Virus record (IMG/VR): IMGVR_UViG_3300044842_000203
Location: 1-64,000 of that record
Reading direction: 5' to 3' (one strand)
Source of the DNA: a virus
Lineage: Duplodnaviria; Caudoviricetes
Length of the DNA stretch: 64,000 nucleotides
Both the position numbers and the translations under genes were made by a program. This document shows, in pieces, positions 2,165 to 42,532 of the stretch (position 1 is its first letter; the number at the start of each line of letters is the position of its first letter). The notes below the pieces were generated by a model. That model was not told where the DNA came from, made no database searches, and saw only the letters and a list, made by a program, of their open reading frames with translations.

Positions 2165-3879
2165 CAGATCAAGGTGAAGTCATCGAACTCGACGATCTGG
2201 TCATCGGTGCTGCCCGCGGAGGTGTGCCCCGCGATGAGCACCATGTTGGTGCTCGTGTAGGCCGGCAGGCCTGCGCTGGCGGTGCGCCGCACCGTCCATG
2301 AGGCGCCATCGGCGCTGGTTTCCCACACGACGGTGCCTGGTGCAGATTCGCGGATCCGCAGCCACACGTGGTTGGTGGCGTCGTAGGCGAGGGTCGTGTC
2401 GTTGTTGACCCCGGCCAGGCGGATCCGCATCAGCAGGTTGGCGCCGGACTTGCCGATGGAAAGCCAGTTGTTGGCATCGGTGTAGACCCGCACCAGCATT
2501 TCTCCGGCCGTGGCGGTGGGCACAGTGGGTGTCTTTACCTGCACCCGGCGGCCAGTGAAGTTGTACTTCGCCACCGAGGTCACCGAGTCGGCGTAGGTGG
2601 AGTGCGCGGTCATGCGCAGCCGGTTGGACACGATCGCCGCGGTGCCCGCAGCGGTCCACAACGTGGTCGACAAGGTGGAGGTGTCGGAGTTGAAGTGGTC
2701 CTCGAAGCCGCCCCCGGCGACCGGATCAGCGGAGTCTACGACGTTGGCTTGCGGCAGCGCGCGGGGCGAGCTGGCCACAATGTCGAGAGTTGAGCCGTTG
2801 AGCAGCAGGTGGTTCACGTAGTCGACACCGGGCACCTGGTCGACCAGGGACACAAACTCGTTGTGCCGCGCTGGAGCGCCCGCAGTCCAGGTGAGTGGGT
2901 TGACGTAGTTACGAATGGCGGCGGTAACGCTGGCGGCCACGGCGGAGGCGGTGTAGCCCGCGGCGGTGGTGAATGTGACGAACACATTCAGGTTGTCGAG
3001 GGTGGCGTTGACGACGTGCACGGCGAGCATCGCCGCGGCTTTGGCCTGCGCCTGATTCTGAAGGTCGGTGAGGTCGGACGTGCCTAGCGGTAGCCCGGTG
3101 GGGTCGAGCACAGCGGAGGTGATGTGACCGGGGTTGGTGCCGGGCAGGGTGGGGGATCCCACGGACCCGTCCCACAGGTCGATGGTCATCACGCGGCCGA
3201 TGCGCACGTCCTCGTCGATGAAGGCGTTGAATTGCTGCGGTACGACCAGCGCATCGGATAGGCGTTGCAGTCGGGCGACGCCGCGATCACGCCAGGCGAC
3301 GTCGGTCTCGGGGTCGCGCCCGCCAGCTACGGTGCTGGACAGCGTGATGGATTGGATCATGTTGAGCTGGTCGGCGAGCACCAGTCGCGCTCCGGCGGCG
3401 ACCCCGTTGGCCGCCGCGGTGTTGATTTGGCTGATCAGGTTCACGGTCGCGGAGGTTTGGCCGGAGGCGATCTGCGTGTCCGGGGATTGCGCCAGGAACA
3501 CCACCACCTGCCCGGTGGCCAGCGTGAGGTAGAACCTCGTGCCCGTCGGGATGGTGTAGCCCAGATTGTCGGCAACGTTGATCGTGGCGGTGCAGGTGGC
3601 CGGCGCCCCGAAGTCGCGCAGCACTCCGGCGAGCCCGAGCACGGCTTCGACGACGGCGCCGGGCAGTCGGTTGATAGCGACCACGTTCTCGGCGACAGCG
3701 AGCGCAATGGCTTCCATGAGCAGGACTTCGGTGTTGCCCTCGCGCGCCACCCAGCCGGGATTCGAGATCCCATACATGGCGATCATGGCGTTAATCAGGT
3801 CTTGCGACGGCACATCGAAGATGCGCAGGTCAACGTAGGCGCCGAGGTCCGCTGGGGGCCGGGATAGGGGTTGGCTCAT
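2164..3879 (-). CDS. Baseplate J/gp47-family protein with C-terminal lectin-like extension
   Basis: Start MSQPLSR overlaps the previous stop; GGRDPETDVAWRDR motif typical of baseplate J. Confidence 0.85.
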   Translation of the reverse strand: MSQPLSRPPADLGAYVDLRIFDVPSQDLINAMIAMYGISNPGWVAREGNTEVLLMEAIALAVAENVVAINRLPGAVVEAVLGLAGVLRDFGAPATCTATINVADNLGYTIPTGTRFYLTLATGQVVVFLAQSPDTQIASGQTSATVNLISQINTAAANGVAAGARLVLADQLNMIQSITLSSTVAGGRDPETDVAWRDRGVARLQRLSDALVVPQQFNAFIDEDVRIGRVMTIDLWDGSVGSPTLPGTNPGHITSAVLDPTGLPLGTSDLTDLQNQAQAKAAAMLAVHVVNATLDNLNVFVTFTTAAGYTASAVAASVTAAIRNYVNPLTWTAGAPARHNEFVSLVDQVPGVDYVNHLLLNGSTLDIVASSPRALPQANVVDSADPVAGGGFEDHFNSDTSTLSTTLWTAAGTAAIVSNRLRMTAHSTYADSVTSVAKYNFTGRRVQVKTPTVPTATAGEMLVRVYTDANNWLSIGKSGANLLMRIRLAGVNNDTTLAYDATNHVWLRIRESAPGTVVWETSADGASWTVRRTASAGLPAYTSTNMVLIAGHTSAGSTDDQIVEFDDFTLI

Positions 3880-22307: not shown

Positions 22308-23657
22308 TCAGGCGCTCGCGGCGGCCAGGTCGACCTTGACCATCGCGGCCGGGCGGTAAACCGCCAAACCGAGCCGCTCTTCCGCCAGCACCACGATCGC
22401 GTTGCGGATGAAGAAGTCGGCGTGCTGGTCGCTGGTCCTGATGTTCGACTGCATGCGGTCAAACACCTGCGCGCCCAAACCGAACGCACCCACCAGTGCA
22501 GTGCCCTCCGGAATAGCCGGGGTGGCGACAACCGGCATCTGCCATAGCCGCTTCTCCGCACCGGAAACCACAGACCCGGCCACCAGGTAGCGGCCTTGGG
22601 TGTCCTTGGTCAACTCCATGCGCTCCCAGTCATACGGGTGCACAACAATGCCCGTGGGGTCGTACTGGGCGAGCATGACGCGAGTCGCGGCACGCCGAAT
22701 GGCGTCAACGTAAGACTCGTTGGTGGGCGGGGTGTAGCTGCCACTGGGGAACAGCTGAATACCGGGGGTGTTGAAGATGCCCAGCAGGTTCTGGCCCGTG
22801 CCGTCACCCAGCAGGATCTGCTCGTCTTCGACGAGCTTGAGGCCGTACATCAGGCGGGTGTCGATGATGCCGCGCAGCTGCGGTTCGTCATCGAGCACGT
22901 TGCGCGATGCCGGCACCCAGTGGGCCAGGGTGCGGATCGGCGTGGTCTTGATGTTGAAGCGAATGTTCGACTTCGGCTTGAGACCGAAGTTGTCATTCGG
23001 TGCAACGCCTTCGCGCTCGGGAACCATCGCGGCGGCGTTGTCGGCGGGGTCGACGAACCCAAGCTCCTCGATGAACTCGATCATCACGGAGCTGGTGTTC
23101 ATCTGCGGGAACAGATCACGCACCCGGTAGTTGATCATCGGGGCGGAAACCATCGGCGCCCGCTGTACAGTGCCGAACCCAGGATGCGTAACGACGCCAA
23201 TGCTGCCGGAATGCACATCCTTGAACTGCACCTGCGACGTCAGCTCCACATCGCTGACCTCAAACGCCTCATCCATGAAACCCGAGGAGCGGTGATTCTT
23301 AAACGCCTCAGACTCCACAAACCGCTGACCCAGCGACTTGTACTCGGCCACCGCAGACGGAACCATCGACTGTCCCGGCGCCAACGCGGCCGGCGTGCCC
23401 GCGGGGGCATCCAGCCACGCATCCAGCTCACTCTTGCGCTCCAGCGCACGAATAACGCCGTAGGTTTCCTCAGCCTTGTCCAGCAGGCCCTTGTACTCGG
23501 TGAAAGCCTCCGGCTTGACGTGCATGTTGCCCTGCTCGTCCAGCCAGCCGGATGCGGCGATCTCATCCAGCTTCGCGTTGATCGACTTGATTTCTGCCCG
23601 GCCGCGCTTAATCAGATCCTTGTCGTCGCGGTCGAGCACGGGGGCGTCAGTTGGCAC
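22308..23657 (-). CDS. Major capsid protein, HK97 fold
   Basis: EDEQILLGDGTGQNLLGI, FIRNAIVVLAEERLGLAVYRPAA; coiled-coil delta domain ending EYKSLG. Confidence 0.95.
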   Translation of the reverse strand: MPTDAPVLDRDDKDLIKRGRAEIKSINAKLDEIAASGWLDEQGNMHVKPEAFTEYKGLLDKAEETYGVIRALERKSELDAWLDAPAGTPAALAPGQSMVPSAVAEYKSLGQRFVESEAFKNHRSSGFMDEAFEVSDVELTSQVQFKDVHSGSIGVVTHPGFGTVQRAPMVSAPMINYRVRDLFPQMNTSSVMIEFIEELGFVDPADNAAAMVPEREGVAPNDNFGLKPKSNIRFNIKTTPIRTLAHWVPASRNVLDDEPQLRGIIDTRLMYGLKLVEDEQILLGDGTGQNLLGIFNTPGIQLFPSGSYTPPTNESYVDAIRRAATRVMLAQYDPTGIVVHPYDWERMELTKDTQGRYLVAGSVVSGAEKRLWQMPVVATPAIPEGTALVGAFGLGAQVFDRMQSNIRTSDQHADFFIRNAIVVLAEERLGLAVYRPAAMVKVDLAAASA

Positions 23658-24131: not shown

Positions 24132-24509
24132 CTACACATCCTCCCCAGCCCACCAACGGCGCCGCAGCTCCGGATCATTCGAAGCCAGCACCCGCCGGGC
24201 CCGCGCCAGCCGACGGGCCTGCTCCTCCGCCGGAATGTCCGGGCGGTGCGGATCACCCAGCATCCAACGGTCCATGTCCGACAGCGTGCCCGCGTGCAGC
24301 GCCATCGCCGCCTCATGCTCACCCTGCTCCTGCTCGCGCGGAGTGCGCCGCCGCAGACCGGCCGCAATGCGGGTGCCGACCGGCTGGCCCCAAAACTCGG
24401 CATTACGCACCACCCGGAACGGGTGAAACGACCACACGGATTTGCCCTCGGCGGCTTGGGCCACCAGCGCCGCGCGCAGCTGGTCGTGCACACCGATCAC
24501 GTCATCCAC
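24132..24509 (-). CDS. Small head-region protein sharing the RVVR..FWG.P.GT.I motif with the giant protein
   Basis: EGKSVWSFHPFRVVRNAEFWGQPVGTRI. Confidence 0.65.
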   Translation of the reverse strand: MDDVIGVHDQLRAALVAQAAEGKSVWSFHPFRVVRNAEFWGQPVGTRIAAGLRRRTPREQEQGEHEAAMALHAGTLSDMDRWMLGDPHRPDIPAEEQARRLARARRVLASNDPELRRRWWAGEDV

Positions 24510-24518
24510 CGCTGCCCC

Positions 24519-27500
24519 CTAGCCCACCGTCGCCGGAACCGGCTGCATCTGCAACGCGGCACCACAGGAGATGCACGCGCGCTGCCCGTTCATTCCATCC
24601 GCCGGGTAGTACATGGTGTTACCGCACGACGGGCACGTGACCGCCTTGAGCAGCTGACCATCGGCGGCCATCACATAGGGCACATCGGCGGCCACCACAT
24701 CCTCGAACGACTCCTCGTCCGCGTCCGGGGCCCCAGACACGGCGGTGTCGGCTTTCAGCTCAGCCTTGAGTTGCGCCGCGCGAGCCAGCAACTCCGCGTC
24801 GAGCAGGGACTTGCCCTCCGATTGTGGCTGCACGAGGTGTCGCTTCCACACGTCCACCACCTGCTGCTTGTCCGCCTTCACCCGCGCCTCGCGTTCCTCC
24901 TGCTGCGCCTTGCGCCGTTTCGAGTTCTCCTCGTACGACAGCGCGTAGTCGTGCTCGTAGGGCACGTACGTTGACCAGCGGCGTTGCAGCGCGGACGCGC
25001 CCTCATCCCAGGGGATGTCCAGGGCCTCCAGGTCGTTGAGCAGGGCTTGCGGGTCATCCACCTGCCCCGCCAGGCCACCGACACGGATGCTGTTGCCGTC
25101 CGCGGTGGTGATGAACTGCGTGCCGTCCGGAGTGGGCACCGCGGCGAGTGTGCCCTTCGGGGACACCACGGCGCCCGGTGATGCGGCCGGGTTGGCGAGC
25201 CGGCGCAGAATATTCCGCTCATCCTTCTGCCAGTTACCCATGCTCGCGGCTGCGCGGCCGGCGGCGGCGCGGGCGTTGGCCAGGGCGGTGGCAGCAGTGT
25301 TCTCCTGCCCATCCTCCCCGGTGGCCACGCCCACTTTCGCCATCTCCTCGGCAACGTGCGCCTGCTCGGTGCGGGCGGCGGCCAGCTCGTCAGCTTTCGC
25401 GAACGGCAGCCCGATGCGGGAGCGCATCTGCTCAGCCTCGGATTCGAGGAAATCGGCGCGGTCCCGCAGCCTCGCTTGGCGGGCCTCGAAACCGTTGAGA
25501 TTGTTGGCCAGGGTGGTGAAGATGCCCGGCCCGAGAGTGGCGATCTGGGTGTCGTTAAGCCGCACCACGGGCCCCAGTTCGTTATCCACACCATCCCAGG
25601 ACAGGTCGATGCCGAACTTCCGGGCACCGGTCTTGTCGTAGTAGGACTGCACCTTGCCCATGAGGTCGTGCCCGCCGAAGGTACCCAGGTAGGTGGGTTC
25701 GGCGCGCCGCCATGAGGGCTGGTTGTAGATGGCGTCACGGATGGCGCCTTTGAGCCCGTCAGCGGCATCGGCGCGGGAAGTGAACTTGTGCCCTCCGGCG
25801 GTGAATGCGAAGTCCTCGCCGGAGGTGGTGTCGGTGCGTTTCGCGATGGCCGCATCGAGGGCGTCGGCGCGGGCCCGGTTGCGCTGCGCGGTTTGGGTGT
25901 AGGTGAGCACGTCGTTGCGCAGGTTGGTTTGCGTGCGGTTGTGCTGGCGCTCCATCCGGGCGAGCTTGGACACCGCGGCGTCGACTTTCGCCTTCTGCAT
26001 GAGCAGCGGGTTGCCGGTGGCCAGGGCTTTCACCTCGGCGTAGGACAGGGCGGTGTCGCCAACGTCTTCCAGTTCGCGCACGTCACCGAGTTTGTTGCGC
26101 ATGATCTGGTCGATGAACTTCTTTTTGCGCTCCAGGGTTTGCCACATGTAGGCGTCGAAGGAGCCTTCGGTGACGTAGCGGTAGATCGCCACGGTGGCGT
26201 TGGTGTTGCCTTGGCGCATGATGCGCCCGTCGCGTTGTTCCACATCGGCGGGCCGCCACGGGGCATCGAGGTGGTGCAGGGCCACGGCGCGGCGCTGCAC
26301 GTTGGTGCCGACACCCATCTTCTCGGTGGACCCGATGAGCACGGCCACTTGACCGTTGCGGGCGGCGGCGAACAACTCCGCCTTTTCGCGGTCGTTTTTC
26401 GCCTCGTGCATGAACCGGATCGACTCACGTTTCATGCCTTTAGCGACCAGGGCGTCGCGCAGCGCGTCGTAGGCGTTCCACCCGTCGGAGGTGGGGGTGC
26501 CCATGTCGGCGAACACGATTTGCATCGAACCGGGCGGTGGGCAGTCGCCCCCGGCGGGGTCGTTGATGTCACAGGGAACGGGACGGTCTTTTGTCTTATC
26601 CCAAATGTCGTAAATCTTGTCAGCGGCGGCCTCAACCTTGCCCGGCTTGTGCTCTTGGCCGACCAGAGCCATGGACAGTGCGGCTTTACGCCCATCGGTG
26701 GAGATTTTCAGCATATTGTCGACTTCGGGTTCCACCGCGCCCGAGCGCACGTCCTCGGCCCGCTCACCCAGCTCGGCAATGTAGGCCGTTAGCTCCGGAG
26801 AGGGGGGCACGATCACGTTTTGCACTGCCCCGGTCTCCAGATTCGGGGTGGGCAGTTTCAGATCATCGGCCATCTTCACATCGGCGAAGATTTGGAACAG
26901 CCGGAGCAGTTCGGGCACGTTGCGGAACTTCGCGAACCGGGTGGTTTGCCGGAACCCGGCACCCTCTGGCTTCAACTCCATTTCATCGACGGTCTGCCCG
27001 AAGGTGGCCGCCCACTGGTCGAACGAGTGGATACCGGCTTCCTCCAGCAGGTCAGGCCGCAGGAAGCGTTGCATGATGTAGGCCTGCGTGACCGTGTTGC
27101 GAATGGGGGTGCCGCTGGCGAAGGTGACCACCCGGCCGCTGGGGTTGTTGGCCCGCAGGTGTTCGATCTTCATGTGCAGGTCTGAGGCCATGTCCGAACC
27201 GGTGGCGCCCGCGCCCTGAATGTTGGATAGGGTGCGCAGGTTCGAATACATGTGCGCCTCGTCCACAAACAGGTAGTCGATACCCGTCTGTTCGAAGGTG
27301 ACACCAGCGTCTTTTTGCTTATCGAGTTTTGCCTTGAGGGCTTCCTCCGCTTTGAGGACGGCCTTCTCCATCTTTTTGATGGTTTTCTGCTGCGCCTGGT
27401 CGCCGAATTGGCCGCCCTCAGCTTTCGCGGCTTCCAGTTGGGCGCGCATCGTGGCGAGTTCCCGATCAATGTAGGACTGCATCGCCTCTTTCGACATGGG

Positions 27501-30500
27501 CACCATGCCCATGGCGTTCTGGGTGAGGATCACGCAATCCCAGTCCCCGGTGGCGGCGCGGGCCACGAACTCCCGGCGCCGATCACCCTTCAAATCGTCC
27601 GTGCCCGCGGCGAGGATCTTCGCATTCGGGTAGATCTGTAAATACTCGCGCTCAAACTGCTCTTTCATGTGGTTGGGAACCACAATGGCGGGCTTCTTAG
27701 CCATGCCGAGGCGCTTGAGTTCGTGCGCGCCCATGGCCATCTCGCCGGTCTTGCCCGCGCCCACCACGTGCGCGAGCAGCGCCGCCGGCTCGGACACGAT
27801 GCGGTTGACCGCGGCGACCTGGTGCGGGCGAGGGGTGAAACCCTCCGCCATGTCGGGGAACACCCGGTCCATGTCGTCGTAGTTGCGCAGCCGCACCGCG
27901 TTGAACTGGTTGTTGTAGTTGCGCAGCAACCGCTGGGCGCGGGTCGAGTCTTCCCACAGCCACTCGGAGAACCGCTCCTGTAGCTCCTCCGCTTTGGCCT
28001 GCGCGGCGGCGGTGGCCTCCAGGTTCGGGTACTGCTTGCCGTCGATCGTGTCGGAAATCTTGATGGAACGCTGCTCCAGCAGGGCCTGCACGATCTCTCC
28101 GGCGGAGATCCGGTCGGTGCCCCACTGCTCGGTGGCTTTGTTGCCCCAGTCGGCGCCGGTCACCGTCCAGATGCCGCCACCGGAGGTGGCGACCTTCACC
28201 GGGTCAGTGTTGCCGTCGTAGATCAGGTCGGCGAGGAATTGGCGCACATCATCGGCGGGGATCCACGCCGCGCCCAGGCGCCCATCCACCTCGTCGACAC
28301 CCAGGTCGGTAGGGATGACGGCCTTGAGCGCATCAACGTTGGCCTGGAAACGCTGGTCGTGTTCGGCGGCGGCCTGTGCGGCGGCGAGTTTGCGGCGCAC
28401 ATTCCCGGACAGGTAGGCGGCGGCGGGTTCGAGTTTGCCGGCGGCCCGCACCGACTCGCCCACCGATTCGAGCGCGGGCGGTTGGCCGTCAAGCCCACCG
28501 AGCGGATCAACATCGGCGGTGTAGTTGCTCCACGCCTGATTCTGCTCAGCCTCCGTCAACGGGGGCTGCTCGAACACCAGCGTGCCCAGCCGTTCGCGGG
28601 CGGTGGACTCATCAGTGCCGAGCATGTCGGCGATGGCCTTGAGATTCACCTCGCCGTAGGTGTCCAGGGACAGGGCGAGCGCATCCTCGGGGGTGTCGGC
28701 TTTGGTGGGGATCTCGCGTGGGGCCACGGCGCGCTTGGTGAAGATGGCGGTCTTCGACCCGGTGCCGGCCTCGGGGTCGTACACCTCCAGGGCGCGCACG
28801 ATCGCTGACATGGGGTCGCGCCTAAAGCCACCCTGACCGGGGGTGACCCGCGAGCCGGTCTTGGACAGGCTGTAGCGGTTGATCGGCCCGTAGCGGGCGA
28901 CGTAGGCGTCGTACTGGTCATTGAGGTCGCGGCGCAGCTGCCGGATCTGCGTCGTGTCGGCGGCGGTGGTGGATTCGGCCTGCAACAGCTCACGCAGGGT
29001 GTCGCGTAGCCCGATCAGGGCGCGCAGCTCCTCGGCCTGTTTGGCGGGCACATCCAGCGGCACCGCGGCACCGCCCACAATCTGGGTGAACCCGCCGTCG
29101 GGGCCGGTGGCGATGTAGCCGTCGTGCGCGTCGGCGGCTTCGGTGATCTGCGCGGTGCCTTCCAGCCGGGGACTGGCGGTGACCCCGCCTGTCTGCGCGG
29201 CGCTAGTGATGCCTTCCAGGGCGTGGTTCAGGTCATCGGGCAGGGTGTCCTGGTCACCCCGCACGATCATGTCGCCGGTGCCGTAGCGGCCCTTTTCGGC
29301 GGTCATTTCGCCGAGCACGTGGTCGGGGTGGTCCAGGAAGTATTGGTTGACGGGAATGTCTTGCCCGCCCAGGTGGGTGACGGGGGCGTTGATCCAGTCT
29401 TGGCTGGTGAGTGGTTCAGCGCCGGGTTCACGGCGCCGGAAAATGAGGATGTCTTCGATGACGCTGGTACCGGCGGTTTTCGAGTGTGAGCCGGTGGGCA
29501 GCCGGACGGCGCCGATCAGGTCACCCATCTCGGCCATGCGCCGCCGGGCGTCGGTGCTCTTGGAGTCCATCGTGTAGCGGGAGGTGAGCAGCGCGCAGAT
29601 ACCGCCCGGTTTGGTGGCCGCCAGGCTCTTGATGATGAAGTGGTTATGGATCGAGAGTTTCCGGCCGGGGTTGTGTACCCGGTCGGTGAGGGCGAAGTCC
29701 CCGAAGGGCACGTTGCCCACCACGGCATCCATCGACCCGGCTGGTAGGCGGGTGTCCGCAAAGGACTCATTGCGGATCGTGGCGCTCGGGTAGAGGGCCT
29801 TGGAGATCGCCGCGGTGGTGGAGTCCAGCTCCACACCCACCATGTCGACGTCGAGGTGGTGCGGCTTGAAACCAATGAACGTGCCCGAGCCGGAGCCTGG
29901 CTCCAAGACCTGCCCACCGTCGAAGCCGAGGTCTTGCACGGCCTTCCAGATGGCGGCTACTGCGTTGGCGTCGGTGTAGTGGGCGTTGAGAGTGTTGCGG
30001 CGGGCCTCCGCCCACTCTTTATCCGAGAGCAGCCCGCGTAGGCGCTCCCGATCGGCGGCGTACTCCGGTTTGGTGTCGTCGAACACCTCCGGCAAACCAC
30101 CCCAGCCGGCCCAGCGGGCCAGTACCCGCTGCTCATCGGGGGTCGCCGGGCGGTGCTCGTTTTGCAGCTGCCGCAAAACTTCGAGGGCGGCGATGTTCGC
30201 GTTGAGTTTCGCCCGCTTCCCGGCGGGGGCGAGGTCATCGGCGTTGACCGGGCGGAAGTCCTCACCCTCCGACGGGATCGCATCAACCTGCCCCCGGTCC
30301 ACGCCGGGCTGCTCGTCGGGCAGATCCGTGGACACCGATGCAGGGGCCTCACCCCCGGCGGCGTCGAGCTGCCCCCGGTCTTCCCGCTCGCCTTCGGTGA
30401 CCGGGTGGTCTACTCCGCCGTCGCGCTGCTCAGGTACTCCGGTTTCGCCGGCAGTGTCGGCTGGCTCGCCCTCGCCGCGTCCCGCTTCTGCTGCGCCAGC

Positions 30501-33500
30501 TCGCTCGCCGCGTCGCTGAACTCGGCCATCGCCTCCGCCAGGTTCACGTCGGTCGCGTCCGGTGTCGGCGGCATCTGCGGATCCGGTGTCGCCTGGTCCG
30601 GGTACCCGTTCGTCTCGGGCCAGTCCGGGGGCAGCAGCGCCAGCAGTGTCTGCCGCATCACCAGTTCCGTCGCCTGCGCCCTCGCCGCGTTCAGCCGCCC
30701 CGCCTTCTCCTCGAACGTCTCGTTCGGCGGGTCGTCCCCCGCCAGGGCTTCGCTCACCTGCTCGATCTCCTGCGCCGCCTGCTCCCCCAGCGTCCCGAAG
30801 AACGTCGCCCTCTCCGTGGGGCTCATCCCGTCGTACGCCTGCGGGAGGTACTGCTGGTACCACTGCTCCGCCAGCGCGGCTAGCGGACTCGTCTGCGCCA
30901 TGGGCATCAGTTTCCCCCTCGTGACGGCGCTGCTGCTCATTGATGATGCCGCGGGCCTTGTTCCACAGTCGCGCCCGCTCGGGGTTGAGTTTCTGCGCCT
31001 GGTCGAGGTGCCCGTGGGCGGTGTCGAACTCGCCGTTGTCGGCGGCGGCGCGGGCGGCGCGCATGTGGTTTTGCGCCTTCGCGGCGGGGGTGTCGCCTTC
31101 GACATCGGGCACGTGGGCGCGGGCGCGCTGCCGGGCGGCCAACTCGTCGGCGATGGCGCCGTTCTTTTCGTCCTCGGTCTTGGGTAGTGGAACCCGCACT
31201 TCGATCTCGTGGTTGTCGCCCCACGAGGTTTTAGTTACGCCCAGGTCTTGCACGGTCATACCGGGCCAGCCCAGCTCGCGAACCGCACCCATGACCTTCT
31301 GTGCGGATTCGTCGCTGTCGGCCCACACTCGGTGAACAGCTACCCCGTCAACAACGCGGGAACCTGCGCCTCCGCCACCACCGGGGATCTTTTGGGCCAC
31401 GCCGTTAAGGGCGTAAGTGCGAGCGCGCGCCGTGCCGGGCAGCTCGGTCTCCGCGCGGGTCTTAGACGGCGCGGGGGTTGAAGCCGAAGACCCAGGAGGT
31501 GAAGGTGTCTCCGCAAGAGATGACCCGGCCTCTGGAGTTTTCGCCACCCGCGCCGCGGGCACCGTAACACCCTCCACGTGCCCGCCGTAGGTCTCGGGGT
31601 CTTCACCCCGGCCGCGCAGCTCCCCATCAATCGCGCCGATCTTGGAGCGGATGCGGTCCCGTTCGATGCGCTTCGCGGCGCGCCGGGCGCGGGCCTGCTC
31701 ATTACGCTTGACCCGCCGACCTTCCCGCAGGTTCCCCGCGGCGGTGAACAGCATGCCCGGTGTGAGCGCCCCGGAGGCGATGGCGGCGTGCACATCACCG
31801 TCACCGAGGGCGCGGCGCACCTGCGTGAACGCCGGGGAATCAGCCGGATGCTTGGCCAGCAGTTTCCCGAACCGATCCGCGGCGGTTTTGATGGCCGCCT
31901 CGTCCCGCTCGGGGGCGTTCAGTAAATCGCCCAGATCTTCCGCGGCGCCGGCTAACCCTGGTCGGGTCGTGGGCGTCTTAGGCTCGGCGGGCGTCCCGGT
32001 GTCCGAGGTGCCCCCCACGCTCGGCTCCGGGGCGCCCGACTTGCTCACCGCGTTCTTAGCGGCTTTATCGCGGCGATCCAGTTCGGTTTGCAACGCCAGT
32101 TCGGCGACCAGATCTTTACGGGCGTCACCGAGCTGCGCGGTCGTTTTGTTGGCGAGCGCGGCGTCGTCCTCGGCGAGCAGGGCCTCCACCCGATCCTGCC
32201 GGTCGGCGACTTCGGGGGTGACGTCTAGTTCCCCGTCGGGGCCTTCGATGAGTCCGTGCTCATCGGGAGTGGCTTCGGGTTCGGGGCCGGGCGCGGGCGC
32301 GGCATGATCGTCGAGAGCCCCGGTGGCGGCGCGCTGGGCGGCCTCGTGCGCGGCGCGCTGCCGCTCGTCGGTGGGTAGACCGGCGGAGGCGTCCATGCTG
32401 CGCTGGGTGGTGGATTGCGCCTGGATGGCGTCGAGACGTTTCTCCACCACATCCGAGGGCAGCACGAGCAGGGTTTGCGCGACGTCGTGCGGGTCCTGAT
32501 CGTCGGGCAGGCCCATGCGGGTGAGGGCGTCGGCGAGGTCATCAACGTTGCCGTCGGCGATGGCGCCTTCGGCGTCGTACCGGGCCTGTGAGGTGTCGAC
32601 GTTGGTGGTGTCGAACGGGGTGAGTGAGGCGAGGATGTCCCGAACGGCCTGCTGGTCTTTGGTTTTGACCGAGGCTTTCGTCCACCGCTTACGTCGAGCG
32701 TTGATGTCACCCCAGGGGATGGGTAGGGCGGCGAGTTTCGCCAGCGCGTCGTCGATCTGCGCGGGGGGGAAGTTGCCGGGGGCGACGGGCATGAGCCCGG
32801 CGTTGGCGGTGTCGACGATCAACCAGTTGCCGTCGGCGCCTTTCACCGCGGCGAACTGCCCATCGGGGGAGGCGTGCACGTCGGCGCCGGGGGTGGCGAA
32901 TTGAGTGAGCATGTTCATGCTCGCGATGGCCGCGTTGCCGACGCCGACCTGTCCGGGGTCGCGGTCTTGTGAGGCGAAGTCCTGGTAGCGCTTGTGCAGC
33001 GCGGCGAGCGCGGCGGCAACCCCTGGTCGCACCGCGGCGGGGGTGGGCGTATGGTCGCCGACCGCGGCAGCCCCGGTAGCCATCGCCTGCTGGCCAGACT
33101 CGGCCGGGGCTGCCGCCACGGCGTGGGCGGCATGACCGATCGCAGGGCCGGTGTCGAGGGTTTCCGCGGCCTCGGCGGGCGCGGTGGTGCGTTCAATGTC
33201 GGCGGCGGTGGCGTGGGATTTGCCGCGGGGGCGCATGCCGGGGCGGATGGGGGTGCCGATGGGCAGACCCCAGAACGTGGAGTCACGGACAACGCGGCGG
33301 CCGAGGCCGTGGAGTGCCTTCACGTCGATGGTCCCCTCGACGGGTGAACTGCCGGAACACCCATCAGGATACCAGTCGTCGGTGTCGTCTTGCTGCGGCC
33401 GAACGTGTTCAGCGAGGGATTTCACCCCCGTTAACGTGGCCAGTGGGTGCGCTCCGTGCAAAACTTGCGACCACTCATAAATGTCGTAATCGTGTAAGTA

Positions 33501-34025
33501 GCGCAGACCGCGGCGTATTTTCGCCCCACCGGGGCGCACCTTGTAACCGATCGAAAAACATTCCTCGGGGCCGTAGAATTTCGCGTCTGAATAAGCATCC
33601 CGGCCGGCTTGCTTATCCATGTTGTACTGGGCTTTGATCAGCAAGCCGCCCGCGGCAGCTGGCCACGGCTTACCATCCGGGGTTTGCTTCGGCAGGCGCG
33701 GGTCGCCGGGCATCAGCTCCTCGGAGTAGACCAGCTTGGAGACCTTCTGCCCCCAGTTGTGATCCGTCACACCCTTGGGCTTCAAGCGTTTCACCGCGGT
33801 ACCCAGGCTGCCGGGCACGATGACGTCGCCCACCTTGTCGGGCACGCCGGAGACAGCGACGATCGCGGTGATCGTGCCTCTGGAGTCGTCGTGACCGATC
33901 ACCCCCGTCAGGGGTGATGACGTCTCCTCGTTCGGCAGCGCCTTCCATTCCAGGCGCCCCGACTCCCCCAAATCGGCCGGAAATTCAATCTCGTCAAGCT
34001 CCAGCCGGGTTTCGGTTGTGGTCAT
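24519..34025 (-). CDS. Giant polyvalent protein: HK97-type prohead protease + DarB-like N6-adenine methylase + SNF2 helicase + Zn ribbon
   Basis: Protease D.VGDVIVPG, DHNW, FSIGY, EWSQV..GA; MTase VLEPGSGSG, GNVPFG; helicase HVVGAGKT, DEAH, SGTP, QRDGRIMRQGN; C-terminal CPSC..CISC. Confidence 0.92.
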   Translation of the reverse strand: MTTTETRLELDEIEFPADLGESGRLEWKALPNEETSSPLTGVIGHDDSRGTITAIVAVSGVPDKVGDVIVPGSLGTAVKRLKPKGVTDHNWGQKVSKLVYSEELMPGDPRLPKQTPDGKPWPAAAGGLLIKAQYNMDKQAGRDAYSDAKFYGPEECFSIGYKVRPGGAKIRRGLRYLHDYDIYEWSQVLHGAHPLATLTGVKSLAEHVRPQQDDTDDWYPDGCSGSSPVEGTIDVKALHGLGRRVVRDSTFWGLPIGTPIRPGMRPRGKSHATAADIERTTAPAEAAETLDTGPAIGHAAHAVAAAPAESGQQAMATGAAAVGDHTPTPAAVRPGVAAALAALHKRYQDFASQDRDPGQVGVGNAAIASMNMLTQFATPGADVHASPDGQFAAVKGADGNWLIVDTANAGLMPVAPGNFPPAQIDDALAKLAALPIPWGDINARRKRWTKASVKTKDQQAVRDILASLTPFDTTNVDTSQARYDAEGAIADGNVDDLADALTRMGLPDDQDPHDVAQTLLVLPSDVVEKRLDAIQAQSTTQRSMDASAGLPTDERQRAAHEAAQRAATGALDDHAAPAPGPEPEATPDEHGLIEGPDGELDVTPEVADRQDRVEALLAEDDAALANKTTAQLGDARKDLVAELALQTELDRRDKAAKNAVSKSGAPEPSVGGTSDTGTPAEPKTPTTRPGLAGAAEDLGDLLNAPERDEAAIKTAADRFGKLLAKHPADSPAFTQVRRALGDGDVHAAIASGALTPGMLFTAAGNLREGRRVKRNEQARARRAAKRIERDRIRSKIGAIDGELRGRGEDPETYGGHVEGVTVPAARVAKTPEAGSSLAETPSPPGSSASTPAPSKTRAETELPGTARARTYALNGVAQKIPGGGGGAGSRVVDGVAVHRVWADSDESAQKVMGAVRELGWPGMTVQDLGVTKTSWGDNHEIEVRVPLPKTEDEKNGAIADELAARQRARAHVPDVEGDTPAAKAQNHMRAARAAADNGEFDTAHGHLDQAQKLNPERARLWNKARGIINEQQRRHEGETDAHGADESASRAGGAVVPAVPPAGVRRDEPHGEGDVLRDAGGAGGAGDRAGERSPGGGRPAERDVRGEGGAAERGEGAGDGTGDAADTAGAAAPGLARDERVPGPGDTGSADAADTGRDRREPGGGDGRVQRRGERAGAAEAGRGEGEPADTAGETGVPEQRDGGVDHPVTEGEREDRGQLDAAGGEAPASVSTDLPDEQPGVDRGQVDAIPSEGEDFRPVNADDLAPAGKRAKLNANIAALEVLRQLQNEHRPATPDEQRVLARWAGWGGLPEVFDDTKPEYAADRERLRGLLSDKEWAEARRNTLNAHYTDANAVAAIWKAVQDLGFDGGQVLEPGSGSGTFIGFKPHHLDVDMVGVELDSTTAAISKALYPSATIRNESFADTRLPAGSMDAVVGNVPFGDFALTDRVHNPGRKLSIHNHFIIKSLAATKPGGICALLTSRYTMDSKSTDARRRMAEMGDLIGAVRLPTGSHSKTAGTSVIEDILIFRRREPGAEPLTSQDWINAPVTHLGGQDIPVNQYFLDHPDHVLGEMTAEKGRYGTGDMIVRGDQDTLPDDLNHALEGITSAAQTGGVTASPRLEGTAQITEAADAHDGYIATGPDGGFTQIVGGAAVPLDVPAKQAEELRALIGLRDTLRELLQAESTTAADTTQIRQLRRDLNDQYDAYVARYGPINRYSLSKTGSRVTPGQGGFRRDPMSAIVRALEVYDPEAGTGSKTAIFTKRAVAPREIPTKADTPEDALALSLDTYGEVNLKAIADMLGTDESTARERLGTLVFEQPPLTEAEQNQAWSNYTADVDPLGGLDGQPPALESVGESVRAAGKLEPAAAYLSGNVRRKLAAAQAAAEHDQRFQANVDALKAVIPTDLGVDEVDGRLGAAWIPADDVRQFLADLIYDGNTDPVKVATSGGGIWTVTGADWGNKATEQWGTDRISAGEIVQALLEQRSIKISDTIDGKQYPNLEATAAAQAKAEELQERFSEWLWEDSTRAQRLLRNYNNQFNAVRLRNYDDMDRVFPDMAEGFTPRPHQVAAVNRIVSEPAALLAHVVGAGKTGEMAMGAHELKRLGMAKKPAIVVPNHMKEQFEREYLQIYPNAKILAAGTDDLKGDRRREFVARAATGDWDCVILTQNAMGMVPMSKEAMQSYIDRELATMRAQLEAAKAEGGQFGDQAQQKTIKKMEKAVLKAEEALKAKLDKQKDAGVTFEQTGIDYLFVDEAHMYSNLRTLSNIQGAGATGSDMASDLHMKIEHLRANNPSGRVVTFASGTPIRNTVTQAYIMQRFLRPDLLEEAGIHSFDQWAATFGQTVDEMELKPEGAGFRQTTRFAKFRNVPELLRLFQIFADVKMADDLKLPTPNLETGAVQNVIVPPSPELTAYIAELGERAEDVRSGAVEPEVDNMLKISTDGRKAALSMALVGQEHKPGKVEAAADKIYDIWDKTKDRPVPCDINDPAGGDCPPPGSMQIVFADMGTPTSDGWNAYDALRDALVAKGMKRESIRFMHEAKNDREKAELFAAARNGQVAVLIGSTEKMGVGTNVQRRAVALHHLDAPWRPADVEQRDGRIMRQGNTNATVAIYRYVTEGSFDAYMWQTLERKKKFIDQIMRNKLGDVRELEDVGDTALSYAEVKALATGNPLLMQKAKVDAAVSKLARMERQHNRTQTNLRNDVLTYTQTAQRNRARADALDAAIAKRTDTTSGEDFAFTAGGHKFTSRADAADGLKGAIRDAIYNQPSWRRAEPTYLGTFGGHDLMGKVQSYYDKTGARKFGIDLSWDGVDNELGPVVRLNDTQIATLGPGIFTTLANNLNGFEARQARLRDRADFLESEAEQMRSRIGLPFAKADELAAARTEQAHVAEEMAKVGVATGEDGQENTAATALANARAAAGRAAASMGNWQKDERNILRRLANPAASPGAVVSPKGTLAAVPTPDGTQFITTADGNSIRVGGLAGQVDDPQALLNDLEALDIPWDEGASALQRRWSTYVPYEHDYALSYEENSKRRKAQQEEREARVKADKQQVVDVWKRHLVQPQSEGKSLLDAELLARAAQLKAELKADTAVSGAPDADEESFEDVVAADVPYVMAADGQLLKAVTCPSCGNTMYYPADGMNGQRACISCGAALQMQPVPATVG
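30410..30907 (-). CDS. TnpV-like protein nested out of frame within the giant gene
   Basis: RBS GAGGGGG before ATG; protein W.QYLP.AY..TFF.TLGEQAAQEIE..LAGDDPP.E.F.EK.GRLN.AR.QA.ELV resembles actinobacterial TnpV-like proteins; host frame here is low-complexity G/R/A. Confidence 0.7.
   Translation of the reverse strand: MPMAQTSPLAALAEQWYQQYLPQAYDGMSPTERATFFGTLGEQAAQEIEQVSEALAGDDPPNETFEEKAGRLNAARAQATELVMRQTLLALLPPDWPETNGYPDQATPDPQMPPTPDATDVNLAEAMAEFSDAASELAQQKRDAARASQPTLPAKPEYLSSATAE
33323..33374 (-). promoter_or_regulatory. Internal early-type promoter + RBS + in-frame GTG inside giant gene
   Basis: TGG-TATCCT-N6-TGTTCCGGC, then GAGGGG 9 nt before GTG (residue 235). Confidence 0.65.
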
Positions 34026-39468: not shown

Positions 39469-40833
39469 CTATGCCCCCACCAGCGCGGGCGCCGGAACCT
39501 CCGCCGGCATCACCGGCATCGCCACAATCAACCCCTCCGTCACTGACGCCACCGCCAGCGACGCGCCAGCCGGCAACACCACCGCACCCCCGGCCAAACC
39601 CACCACCGTGCCCGCCGGGATCGACACCGCCAACACCGCCGTCGACACCGCCGCAGACGATGCCAACGCCAGAGTGAGGGTGCGCGGCCACGAGATCCGC
39701 TGCCCCGGCGTCACCGGGGGCATCTCATCCAACGTGCGGTAAGCCACCACATCAGCGGGCACACGCACCGCCGGAACCGACGGGCCACCAATCACCGGGT
39801 CATCATTCGACGTCTCACCCACCGCCGGGGCCGCCAGCAGGGCTCGTGCCGCATCCGGTGTGCCCGAGTCCGCCAGCGTCGTCGCATGCTCGATACCGGC
39901 CAGCGGTTTCGCGAACAACAGCCCGCAGCGGCACCCGGCCACCTCGCCGATGCCCTCGGGGAGCACGGACGGATCACCGGGGAACCGCAGCCGGAACGCA
40001 CCCACTTGATACGGCTGGCCTATTGGCCGCTCCTGCCCGTCGGCGATGCGATGCGTCGGCCGCACCCGGTCATCCCGGCGGGAAATCCACTGCATGTGCG
40101 TCACACCCATGGCCTTCGCTGCCGCGAGCGCCGCATCCCCCGCCAGCGCGGTCGCCAGCGTCCGCCCGTACATCAGATTCCAGTTACCACCACGCCGCAC
40201 CGCCGCCAACACCTGGTCAATCACGTGGTCGAGGTCTTCGGCGGTGGAGTTGGCTTCCATGATGACGGCGCGCACCATCTGCGCCTGCCGGCGTGAGCAC
40301 GCGAGCATCTGCTGGACCGCGGAATCTACTGCCTGCTCGACAGTCGCCCAGTCGAACGCAGCCAGGCCCACATTGGGTCGCCCGAGGGACTGGGCGACAT
40401 GGGAAGCGGCGTCGGCGACGATGCGCAGTCCCACCGGCCGCACCGCGTCAGCGATCTCATCGACCGTCCTATCGGGGAGGATGTAGTCGCCGTCGAGGGC
40501 CTTGGTTTCAGTCCGGTTGTATGTCCTAACAGAGTCATCCACCCTCACCCCAGATACAGACTTCACCTGTTCGGACCAAAAGCGGGTGCCTTTGCGAGCC
40601 CGCGGGCCCCGCAACCGGGCCTCAACCACCCCGGCGAGGCGATCGTTATACGCCGACACCGCCGCATCCATCGCGGCCACCGCCCGGTCCACCCGCGCCG
40701 CCGCATCATCGGCCAGCGCATCCCGGATCGGTCCCTGCGGCGGATCGGGGGGCGCCTCGTGCACCATGACCTGCGTCAGCGGCAAATCCGCCAGGTCATC
40801 GGCGGTAAGCAAATCGCGCGCCGCGCTGCTCAC
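39469..40833 (-). CDS. MuF/SPP1 gp7-like minor head protein with C-terminal extension
   Basis: WISRRDDRVRPTH..ADGQ..FPGDP..GCRC. Confidence 0.9.
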   Translation of the reverse strand: MSSAARDLLTADDLADLPLTQVMVHEAPPDPPQGPIRDALADDAAARVDRAVAAMDAAVSAYNDRLAGVVEARLRGPRARKGTRFWSEQVKSVSGVRVDDSVRTYNRTETKALDGDYILPDRTVDEIADAVRPVGLRIVADAASHVAQSLGRPNVGLAAFDWATVEQAVDSAVQQMLACSRRQAQMVRAVIMEANSTAEDLDHVIDQVLAAVRRGGNWNLMYGRTLATALAGDAALAAAKAMGVTHMQWISRRDDRVRPTHRIADGQERPIGQPYQVGAFRLRFPGDPSVLPEGIGEVAGCRCGLLFAKPLAGIEHATTLADSGTPDAARALLAAPAVGETSNDDPVIGGPSVPAVRVPADVVAYRTLDEMPPVTPGQRISWPRTLTLALASSAAVSTAVLAVSIPAGTVVGLAGGAVVLPAGASLAVASVTEGLIVAMPVMPAEVPAPALVGA

Positions 40834-42532
40834 CCTCCAATGCCTTCATCTGCGGGGCGGCGGTCAACGTCGCGCCTCCGGTGCGGTCGGCCTGCGCGAG
40901 CGCCCGCTGATTCGGTGGCCCCGCGCCCTCGTCACCCGCGTCGGCGCTACCCATCTGGTCGCCACCAGTGCCCCCGCCACCGTCCATCGCCGATGAGGGA
41001 TCGACCGGGCCGCCCATGAGATCCGCGGTCGGGTCGAATCCGGTGCCGAACCCTGGCGGCAGCTCCCCGCCACCGCCCGCCGATAGGGTCGCTGGCTGGC
41101 CACCCAGGGGGGCGCGGCCGGCGGCCTCAGCGTCACCGTCGTGCGCGGGCTTGTCATCACCCACCGCGAGCCGGCCGGCGGGGATCCACAGCACACGCGA
41201 GGCCGGTACATCCCAGGGGTCGAGGTCTTTGACCTCGCGTACCTCGTCGATGGTGATGATGCCGTTGTTGAAATCAGCAACCGCCCGGTCCTCGCGGGCC
41301 CGCTGGTAGCGGCCGAGCACCCACACGTCAGACACATCATGGGAGAGGTAGGTGTCGTCGTCGTAGCCGCCGGGAGTGAGCACATCGAGCTGCGCGTCGA
41401 GCATGTCGAACAGGGGCAGCAGGCCGTGTTCCCACGCTTTGGCGTAGTCGGCGTCGGCGTTGTCGAAAGTCTCCCCCGACGAGTCGGAGATCACCGACTC
41501 GGGTAGGCCGAAGGCGACGCAGATTTCCCGCTTGGTGCGGTCCATCGTGTCGCCCCACATCATGTCCCGCGGAGTGCCCGAGGTGTCGGTCCATGTCATG
41601 TCGTCGGCTTCGATGGCCAGTGTTTGGGCCGTGTTCTCCGGCGAGTTGAAGCGGCGCTCCAGTTGGTCGATGAACTGGTCCTCGATGGGGCCTTTGACGG
41701 CGAGCACGCCGCCGGGGCGGCCATCTTGCTGCATGAACCGCCGGTTGTAGAGGCGGGCGTAGCGGTCCAGGTCAGTGGACAGGCCGGCGGCCTCCATGGG
41801 GCTCATGCCGCGCTCGAACATGGTGGGGTGCGGTGAGCGGATCCACACGATGCCCGAGGGCTGATCATCGGGAGAGGCTTGCGGGTCGAAGGGGGGCCGG
41901 AAGTCGAAGAAGGGAGCGCCGTTGGCGGCTGCGGTGGTGACCCGGAATGACTCGATGGGGGTAATGACGCCCACCTCGGTGGGGTCGTCGGGGTTGCGCT
42001 TGCGCCGGCCGGGTACGGGGAGCACCCGGTCGGGGTCGAGTAGGTAGATGGAGTGGATGGAGCCGCGCCGGGAGCGCACAGCTTCGATGAATACTCCGCG
42101 GGAGGACAGTAGGTACTGGGCGATCAGGCGGTGGCGGAAGATTTTCGCGACTTCCCAGGCGTTGGCGCGCCGGTTGAGTCGGCGCAGTAGCACCTGTTGG
42201 TCTTTGTCGAGTTCGCCGGGTTTGAGGATGGGGCCTTCGCGGGAGTCCTCTTTGCGGAGCACGATGCGCCGGGCGCGCTCATTGCTCGCGATGAACTCCA
42301 CGCAGCGGAACACGTAGGGGTTGTAGGCGTAGCCCTCACGGACGGCGCGGTCGGTGTCCCAGTCGACGGTGTAGGGCTGGCCGGGCACGACGTAAGCGCG
42401 GGGGCCGGACACGATGCGGGAGTCCAGCGAGCCGCCTCCGGTGGTGTATCCGGAGAACATGCCGCGCAGCGCCGGGAACCAGGTTTTGCTGGTGGCGGCT
42501 GGGGTTGCAGTGGGGCCGCGTCTGCGGGCCAA
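40796..42532 (-). CDS. Portal protein (HK97 family)
   Basis: NPYVFRCV..IA, LNRRAN, GMSPMEAA, GRPGGVL, ICVAFGLP, ITIDEVR. Confidence 0.93.
   Translation of the reverse strand: MARRRGPTATPAATSKTWFPALRGMFSGYTTGGGSLDSRIVSGPRAYVVPGQPYTVDWDTDRAVREGYAYNPYVFRCVEFIASNERARRIVLRKEDSREGPILKPGELDKDQQVLLRRLNRRANAWEVAKIFRHRLIAQYLLSSRGVFIEAVRSRRGSIHSIYLLDPDRVLPVPGRRKRNPDDPTEVGVITPIESFRVTTAAANGAPFFDFRPPFDPQASPDDQPSGIVWIRSPHPTMFERGMSPMEAAGLSTDLDRYARLYNRRFMQQDGRPGGVLAVKGPIEDQFIDQLERRFNSPENTAQTLAIEADDMTWTDTSGTPRDMMWGDTMDRTKREICVAFGLPESVISDSSGETFDNADADYAKAWEHGLLPLFDMLDAQLDVLTPGGYDDDTYLSHDVSDVWVLGRYQRAREDRAVADFNNGIITIDEVREVKDLDPWDVPASRVLWIPAGRLAVGDDKPAHDGDAEAAGRAPLGGQPATLSAGGGGELPPGFGTGFDPTADLMGGPVDPSSAMDGGGGTGGDQMGSADAGDEGAGPPNQRALAQADRTGGATLTAAPQMKALEGEQRGARFAYRR

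Follow-up and report, generated by a model that had tools for sequence, protein, structure and literature searches.

A single gene in the head module of an uncultured tailed phage (Duplodnaviria; Caudoviricetes) encodes both a prohead maturation protease and a very large enzyme resembling DarB, the protein with which phage P1 protects its incoming DNA. The gene lies on the minus strand between positions 24519 and 34025 of the window, by which we mean the whole 64,000-nucleotide stretch that was analysed, namely the first 64 kb of the IMG/VR record IMGVR_UViG_3300044842_000203 (111,566 bp, about 66% G+C, estimated to be 92% complete). It starts with ATG and continues for 3168 codons with zero internal stops. 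A first-pass annotation of the window, made from its letters, had claimed that a protease runs without a stop into an N6-adenine methyltransferase (MTase) and an SNF2 helicase, and that the protease serves as a packaging vehicle from which the enzyme is released by self-cleavage. The protease-DarB fusion is confirmed: the gene is real and single, and its product is a phage polyvalent protein. As for its role, we hold it to be on balance probable, judging from sequence comparison and from the analogy with P1, that the fused DarB-like enzyme is built into the head by the protease, cut free, and injected with the DNA to act against restriction.

A Head Protease and a DarB-Like Enzyme in One Frame

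On the minus strand, the genes for the portal (40796-42532), a MuF-like head morphogenesis protein (39469-40833) and a PHROG 1221 protein are followed by two small open reading frames (ORFs), a 2H-phosphoesterase protein of 626 amino acids (aa), the giant gene, two further small ORFs (about 860 nt), the major capsid protein with its N-terminal delta domain and, later, the tail sheath. The ATG of the giant gene overlaps the stop of the 2H protein gene (34022-34025). In other words, the gene belongs to the head module and lies, as had been claimed, between the portal and MuF genes (39469-42532) and the capsid gene (22308-23657).

The N-terminal domain is called a prohead protease because a profile match, homology to annotated proteases, the predicted fold and a conserved His/Ser pair all agree, and the maturation protease named in the first-pass annotation is to that extent borne out. 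PHROG 80 (“head maturation protease”) matches aa 43-213 with an E-value of 7.6e-14, or 3.5e-15 when the whole genome is searched. With gp34, the standalone capsid maturation protease of Gordonia phage Hanem, the domain shares 46% identity, and the range is 43-48% when Brevibacterium phage Cantare gp13 and Streptomyces phage Gilgamesh gp52 are included. His89 and Ser158, putative catalytic residues by their position and by analogy, are invariant in 53 giant proteins, in the three annotated proteases and in a 67-sequence family alignment (A1). An AlphaFold2 model has a predicted local distance difference test score (pLDDT) above 90 over aa 50-200, and its alignment with VIA-align gives T4 gp21 first (Z 11.7; root-mean-square deviation 2.4 Å over 124 residues), followed by the proteases of varicella-zoster virus (Z 8.8) and human cytomegalovirus (6.8), the next unrelated row having Z ≤4.8. 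With Foldseek, capsid proteases fill all of the top 16 rows. The modelled domain is therefore assigned the prohead-protease/assemblin fold, that of the HK97-type proteases (MEROPS S78, assemblin-like superfamily). Searches by sequence of PDB chains with aa 1-300 and with profile A1 returned nothing meaningful. Across the whole genome (111.6 kb), no S78, ClpP, S49 or S77 model found a match, and PHROG 80 matched the domain of the giant protein alone, which is, by these profiles, the only recognisable head protease in the genome.

The second part of the protein, aa ~1238-2928, is a complete DarB-type module of a putative LPD36 domain, N6A-methylase and SNF2 helicase with its motifs intact. The match to PHROG 10089 (“DarB-like antirestriction”) has E=0, PHROGs for methyltransferases and helicases match too, as do the Pfam families ResIII, SNF2-rel and Helicase_C, so the earlier assignment of both enzymes stands. 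In the helicase, Walker A, DEAH and motifs III and VI are intact. In the MTase, motif IV reads NVPF (aa 1438) in place of NPP(Y/F), Val replacing the first Pro. The DarB dyad has been described as an EcoKI/TaqI-type N6A methylase with a C-terminal SWI2/SNF2-type helicase, preceded by an LPD36 domain with a GxGU motif (PMC5512222); in the giant protein, GWGG stands at aa 1308, about 70 aa upstream of MTase motif I, and, judged by motif, fits that description of LPD36. The best annotated phage relatives of the core are “DarB-like antirestriction” proteins, 32-38% identical, from Bcep22-like and other phages of Gram-negative hosts.

A Family of Giants with Interchangeable Cassettes

The fusion is not peculiar to this phage. 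Among long proteins, to which one search was limited, about 25 clusters (3000-4600 aa), drawn from independent JGI, Logan and NCBI contigs, share the same N-terminus (46-87% identity) and the DarB-type Pfam families. Four related contigs (L010, L012, L013 and L015; 62-69% identity) have the same order of 2H protein, giant and capsid genes, and in each the giant is a single frame, of 3291-3689 aa; a stop or frameshift parting protease from DarB in homologues, which would have spoken against a true fusion, was thus not seen in them. In an exhaustive search of cluster representatives, 27 of the best 150 clusters were proteins longer than 1500 aa with the protease at the N-terminus. Of the cultured phages in the INPHARED set, none has the fusion.

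About 28 more giants (2000-2950 aa) share the protease and carry other cargo, such as a zeta-toxin-like kinase or uncharacterised domains. Four of them (P0037, P0045, P0057 and P0058) have the same leading protease and a C-terminal zeta-toxin/AAA_33 kinase-like domain, with no DarB. A giant with non-DarB cargo occupies the same slot in contig L030. A shorter protein, P0059 (1634 aa), can be aligned with aa 1-534, with aa 591-809 and, at its end, with the zinc-ribbon tail (3069-3168) of the giant, and is without the DarB core. From these alignments, the relatives appear to reuse the N-terminal frame and the C-terminal tail with other cargo cassettes. At 14 more distant viral loci bearing DarB (plus a fragment, L014), neither the giant-type protease family nor the tag described below was found. 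Gilgamesh gp48 (4624 aa) was considered as an unfused counterpart of DarB and dropped, since it has no detectable similarity to the giant protein. This unrelated virion-module protein (L033:5979-19853) begins …LEVK↓AARRKWNPALHPRDSKGRF…, with another short N-terminal motif after an E-x-K site (here and below, an arrow marks a predicted cut), and P0055 carries LHPRGPGGKF, which resembles it.

Candidate Cleavage Sites

The HK97 protease cleaves after lysine, and in this genome the head-module proteins have 14 copies of the motif E-x-K-[S/A/G] in 6030 aa, as against 5 in 26,197 aa elsewhere (about 12-fold). Relative to counts expected from within-protein shuffles, the capsid protein has 4 sites (0.29 expected), all within aa 1-107, and the last of these, EYK107↓SLGQRF, is invariant in orthologues. 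The 2H protein has 5 sites (0.47 expected), and the reversed motif is found in neither protein. By its sequence, the 2H protein looks like a polyprotein cut by the protease of the giant. It also contains a diverged tag-like stretch (…LRNFWAFNPKG…) after IEVK.

In the giant protein itself, conserved lysines flank the protease domain. The first, K28, has the E-x-K form in 16 of 16 DarB-type giants; its lysine, like K202, with which the protease domain ends, is kept by at least 90% of the family (67 members); and a conserved D/E-x-K238 comes just before the tag, the E and K at the end of the linker being nearly invariant in alignment A2. From the enrichment, the conservation and the analogy with HK97, we infer E-x-K↓S/A/G as a candidate cleavage rule.

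The FWG Tag and the Short Propeptide

Directly after K238 comes a short conserved stretch, the FWG tag, which is present in nearly all giant homologues whatever their cargo (Table 1). In the AlphaFold2 model it has pLDDT values of 83-93 and adjoins the protease. The same tag is repeated in a small ORF (24132-24509) after AEGK↓S. This ORF is absent from the corresponding position in the related contigs L010-L015; its product is a candidate small packaged protein because it combines a propeptide, the AEGK↓S site and the FWG tag.

A similar arrangement is seen in Hanem, where the tagged proteins are encoded by genes separate from that of the protease. Hanem gp26, annotated as an ADP-ribosyltransferase, has a 17-aa propeptide, E-x-K↓A, the FWG tag and then its cargo; gp27 has a 12-aa propeptide ending in E-x-K↓A, followed by the tag and cargo. 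The ADP-ribosyltransferase gp19 of Stormageddon also has the tag at its N-terminus, and in the MuF-protease fusion gp8 of Argie the tag lies internally. By this comparison, the protease and linker of the giants would take the place of the short propeptide, which fits the idea of the protease as a packaging vehicle.

A Model for Loading and Release

In the reading that we prefer, the fused polypeptide would be carried into the head by the protease, since prohead proteases co-assemble inside the procapsid. The protease would then cut after lysine at E-x-K↓S/A/G sites: in the delta domain of the capsid protein, where the last site would be EYK107↓S, at its own flanks (K28, and K202 and/or K238) and in the tail (K3072 and K3091). 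The predicted products are a protease of ~19-23 kDa, a cargo of ~303 kDa (aa 239-3072) and small tail fragments. The released cargo would begin with the FWG tag, remain in the head, exit with the DNA, and shield that DNA from restriction as P1 DarB does. The size of such a cargo need be no obstacle, because P1 packages about 40 copies of the 250-kDa DarB by means of a 30-aa N-terminal signal (PMC9024508).

The proposal of a vehicle that cleaves itself is partly supported, namely by the conservation of the fusion, its canonical slot, the presence of a sole recognisable protease, the conserved flanking lysines and the parallel with the propeptides. This comparative support makes encapsidation, cleavage and ejection plausible.

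Several observations weigh against it. Over its full length the giant protein shows no enrichment in E-x-K-[S/A/G] (4 sites, 2.5 expected), and in this phage K202 and K238 are without the glutamate at P3. With regard to the protease, Pfam gave no match on aa 1-300 even at E ≤10, and Peptidase_S78 (PF04586), the family that had been expected, was also absent from the genome search, a precomputed PF04586 match being present in some homologues. The record in which no second head protease was recognised is 92% complete. Over aa ~1000-1230, moreover, the giant frame is without a coding signature: G+C at the first codon position (GC1) is 0.87-0.93 and at the third (GC3) 0.51-0.62. That the frame stays open there is unlikely by chance only at the level of ~0.03 (0.16-0.77 per locus).

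The Alternatives

It could be argued that the methylase-helicase is not virion cargo, that co-translation with the protease serves only to time its expression, and that the enzyme, once severed in the cytoplasm or on the surface of the procapsid, methylates the progeny DNA before packaging. Methylation of replicating DNA would also defeat restriction, the cleavage sites flank the protease, and packaging of the enzyme is itself a prediction. We nevertheless consider this unlikely, because the gene stands in the head module among other probable packaged proteins, relatives bear a toxin-like kinase cargo in the same frame, the FWG tag is also found on ADP-ribosyltransferases encoded in head modules, and the characterised relative, P1 DarB, is a head protein.

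We give little credence to the view that the long extension is mainly an internal scaffold or core, degraded and expelled like the delta domain, with nothing functional ejected. The standalone proteases Hanem gp34 (in L001), Cantare gp13 (L002) and Gilgamesh gp52 (L003) have 4-6 E-x-K-[S/A/G] sites each in their C-terminal extensions, which would fit self-digestion of a scaffold-like tail, and in the giant the ~1000 aa that separate the tag from the MTase resemble a linker. However, the 2834-aa cargo region contains one such site, within the folded helicase; the enzyme motifs are all intact and conserved; and interchangeable enzymatic cassettes would make no sense in a scaffold.

It is quite improbable, too, that the locus gives two products, the fusion and a protease-less cargo made from an internal promoter and a GTG at the junction. 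An internal promoter with an in-frame restart had been claimed, and GAGGGG does stand 9 nt upstream of an in-frame GTG. The claim was not supported: the 17-mer at the site does not recur in the window, no sigma-70-like or other promoter-like site is found on the coding strand, and the valine that the GTG encodes in IDVKAL (residue 237, numbered 235 in the first-pass annotation) is not conserved, being Y, T, F, S, N, A or L in homologues. Finally, an assembly or frameshift artefact or a decaying pseudogene is hardly credible, for although the assembly is metagenomic and the codon signature at aa 1000-1230 is odd, the fusion recurs in the ~25 independent clusters, four other contigs have it in one unbroken frame, every DarB-type giant has the low-complexity linker, and the catalytic residues are conserved throughout.

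Other Parts of the Locus

The features of the locus are collected in Table 1.

Table 1. Features of the giant gene and its neighbours, with positions in the window; arrows mark predicted cuts.
Feature	Position	Strand	Remarks
Giant gene	24519..34025	-	3168 aa, 338.6 kDa, single open frame
N-terminal propeptide, aa 1-28, ending LEWK28↓A	33942..34025	-	E-x-K in 16/16 DarB-type giants
Prohead protease domain, aa 29-202 (His89, Ser158), ending GVK202↓S	33420..33941	-	PHROG 80, predicted fold, homology
Acidic linker, aa 203-238, ending IDVK238↓A	33312..33419	-	Alignment of 53 giants; E-x-K in most homologues
FWG tag, aa 239-270, RVVRDxxFWGxPxGTPIxPGM	33216..33311	-	About 50/52 giant homologues, whatever the cargo
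Repeat module A, aa 362-449	32679..32942	-	35% identical to aa 2929-3018, E 4e-5
Helical domain, aa 584-820	31566..32276	-	Common to giants; AlphaFold2 pLDDT 89
G/R/A/D/E-rich low-complexity linker, aa 1040-1237	30315..30908	-	Present in all DarB-type giants
Nested +1-frame ORF, 165 aa	30410..30907	-	GC3 0.80-0.90 over five loci (0.90 here)
LPD36-like region, aa 1238-1340	30006..30314	-	GWGG motif at aa 1308; PHROG 37568
N6-adenine MTase, aa 1341-1580	29286..30005	-	Motif I LEPGSGSGTF, motif IV NVPF; PHROGs 11801 and 3820
SNF2/SF2 helicase, aa 2021-2720	25866..27965	-	Pfam ResIII, SNF2-rel, Helicase_C; GAGKT, DEAH, SGTP, QRDGRIMRQG
Repeat module B, aa 2929-3018	24972..25241	-	Copy of module A
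C-terminal tail, aa 3019-3168, SEGK3072↓S, ELK3091↓A, zinc ribbon aa 3137-3160	24519..24971	-	Sites in 14/16 each
Upstream 2H-phosphoesterase protein, 626 aa	34022..35902	-	Translationally coupled; five E-x-K-[S/A/G] sites
Small ORF, 125 aa	24132..24509	-	Propeptide, AEGK↓S, then FWG tag
Major capsid protein	22308..23657	-	Pfam Phage_capsid; four E-x-K-[S/G] sites in aa 1-107

A repeat module of about 90 aa (…SPxG…AAV…DG…ALxIPW…RRW) stands on both sides of the cargo, and its first copy has no family match. Between the tag and the low-complexity linker lies a helical domain of about 240 aa with an arginine-rich C-terminal helix, which is found, at varying positions, in 51 of the 52 giants. For this domain PDB and BFVD gave no matching fold, and Atlas and the family databases gave no match either. 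The idea that it is a scaffold remnant shared with the standalone proteases was ruled out, because those short proteases are without it. At the other end of the protein, the zinc ribbon is present in 17 of 20 DarB-type giants.

The low-complexity linker also contains an ORF in the +1 frame. The nested gene claimed in the first-pass annotation holds in part. In its favour, the product has a normal composition and is conserved at the protein level in the four related contigs (L010, L012, L013 and L015), in all of which the giant frame is open as well, and its GC3 is of the coding type. On the other side, the tendency of substitutions to fall at the third position of the alternative frame is mild, a weak codon-position signal, and no match was found to Pfam or PHROG at E ≤1 or to NCBIfam at E ≤0.1, so that the label “TnpV” was not reproduced. 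A compensated double frameshift over aa ~1000-1230 was rejected, because the product of the alternative frame matches the giant protein of no homologue. The likeliest reading, which we think is quite probably correct, is that of a conserved overprinted gene.

Comparison with Known Systems

Among the closest known parallels is P1 DarB, which has the same LPD36/N6A-methylase/SNF2 module (the LPD36 part being putative in the giant), is also very large, is encoded among virion genes, and protects incoming DNA (PMC9024508, PMC5512222). In P1, however, DarB is a protein of its own, which Hdf, DarA, DdrA, DdrB and Ulx load by way of its N-terminal signal, whereas the giant has the head protease as its N-terminus and proteins of the Dar loading set were not seen; its identity to annotated phage DarB-like proteins is only 32-38%.

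The giant is a polyvalent protein by definition, having a protease, a tag, a helical domain, a DarB-type core (putative LPD36, MTase and SNF2) and a Zn ribbon in a late-gene context. Polyvalent proteins (Iyer et al. 2017, PMC5512222) and the “capsid maturation protease and MuF-like fusion proteins” of SEA-PHAGES (Mycobacterium phage Argie gp8) similarly join effector domains to a head protein and a prohead-type peptidase. Where polyvalent proteins have an assemblin-like peptidase, it has been reported only at the C-terminus (Iyer et al. 2017, PMC5512222). In the giant, on the contrary, the peptidase is the first domain (aa 29-202 of 3168), it sits in the canonical protease slot and is the only head protease found, and the cargo in the family amounts to 2-4.6 thousand aa. 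Our literature search found no paper that joins a DarB-like protein and a maturation protease in a fusion.

The standalone proteases Hanem gp34, Cantare gp13 and Gilgamesh gp52 share with the giants the His/Ser pair, the K28- and K202-type flanks and the place upstream of the capsid gene; they differ in being 417-641 aa long, with acidic, E-x-K-rich tails and no enzymatic cargo. The HK97 protease, gp4, is reportedly encapsidated. In T4, the capsid-targeting sequence is a short, removable N-terminal peptide, processed by gp21 after L/I-x-E. In T4 and HK97, as proposed for the giant, a peptide or a protease guides cargo into the prohead, and the prohead protease then trims it; T4 uses a short peptide, whereas the giant has a covalently fused protease and a predicted E-x-K rule. 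The MuF-led polymorphic toxins of temperate phages (PMC5576092) resemble the giants in having a conserved head-associated N-terminal domain and interchangeable C-terminal effector cassettes, but their carrier is MuF and the proteins are much shorter.

Significance

It is possible, and we put it forward as tentative, that a clade of actinobacterial phages shares a transferable loading pattern. It would consist of a carrier (either a propeptide of 12-17 aa or a whole protease), an E-x-K site and a retained tag, which would dock either on the protease or inside the capsid. Whatever cassette is inserted between such a frame and the zinc-ribbon tail, be it DarB, a zeta-toxin-like kinase or an ADP-ribosyltransferase, would be delivered to the host, and the linker of the DarB type would carry an overprinted gene in addition.

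According to a published generalisation, the assemblin-like peptidases of polyvalent proteins are always C-terminal; the N-terminal peptidase of the giant corrects this. If the preferred reading is true, namely that the protease brings the fused enzyme into the head and cuts it free, these phages would have solved the problem of cargo loading by making the cargo part of an enzyme that is always in the prohead, where P1 needs five helpers, and the copy number of the cargo would be set by that of the protease. It would also account for the arrival of very large anti-defence enzymes in the host together with the DNA. The cleavage rule and the short tag would be testable in cultivable Gordonia phages such as Hanem, and perhaps usable to package chosen proteins in actinophage heads.

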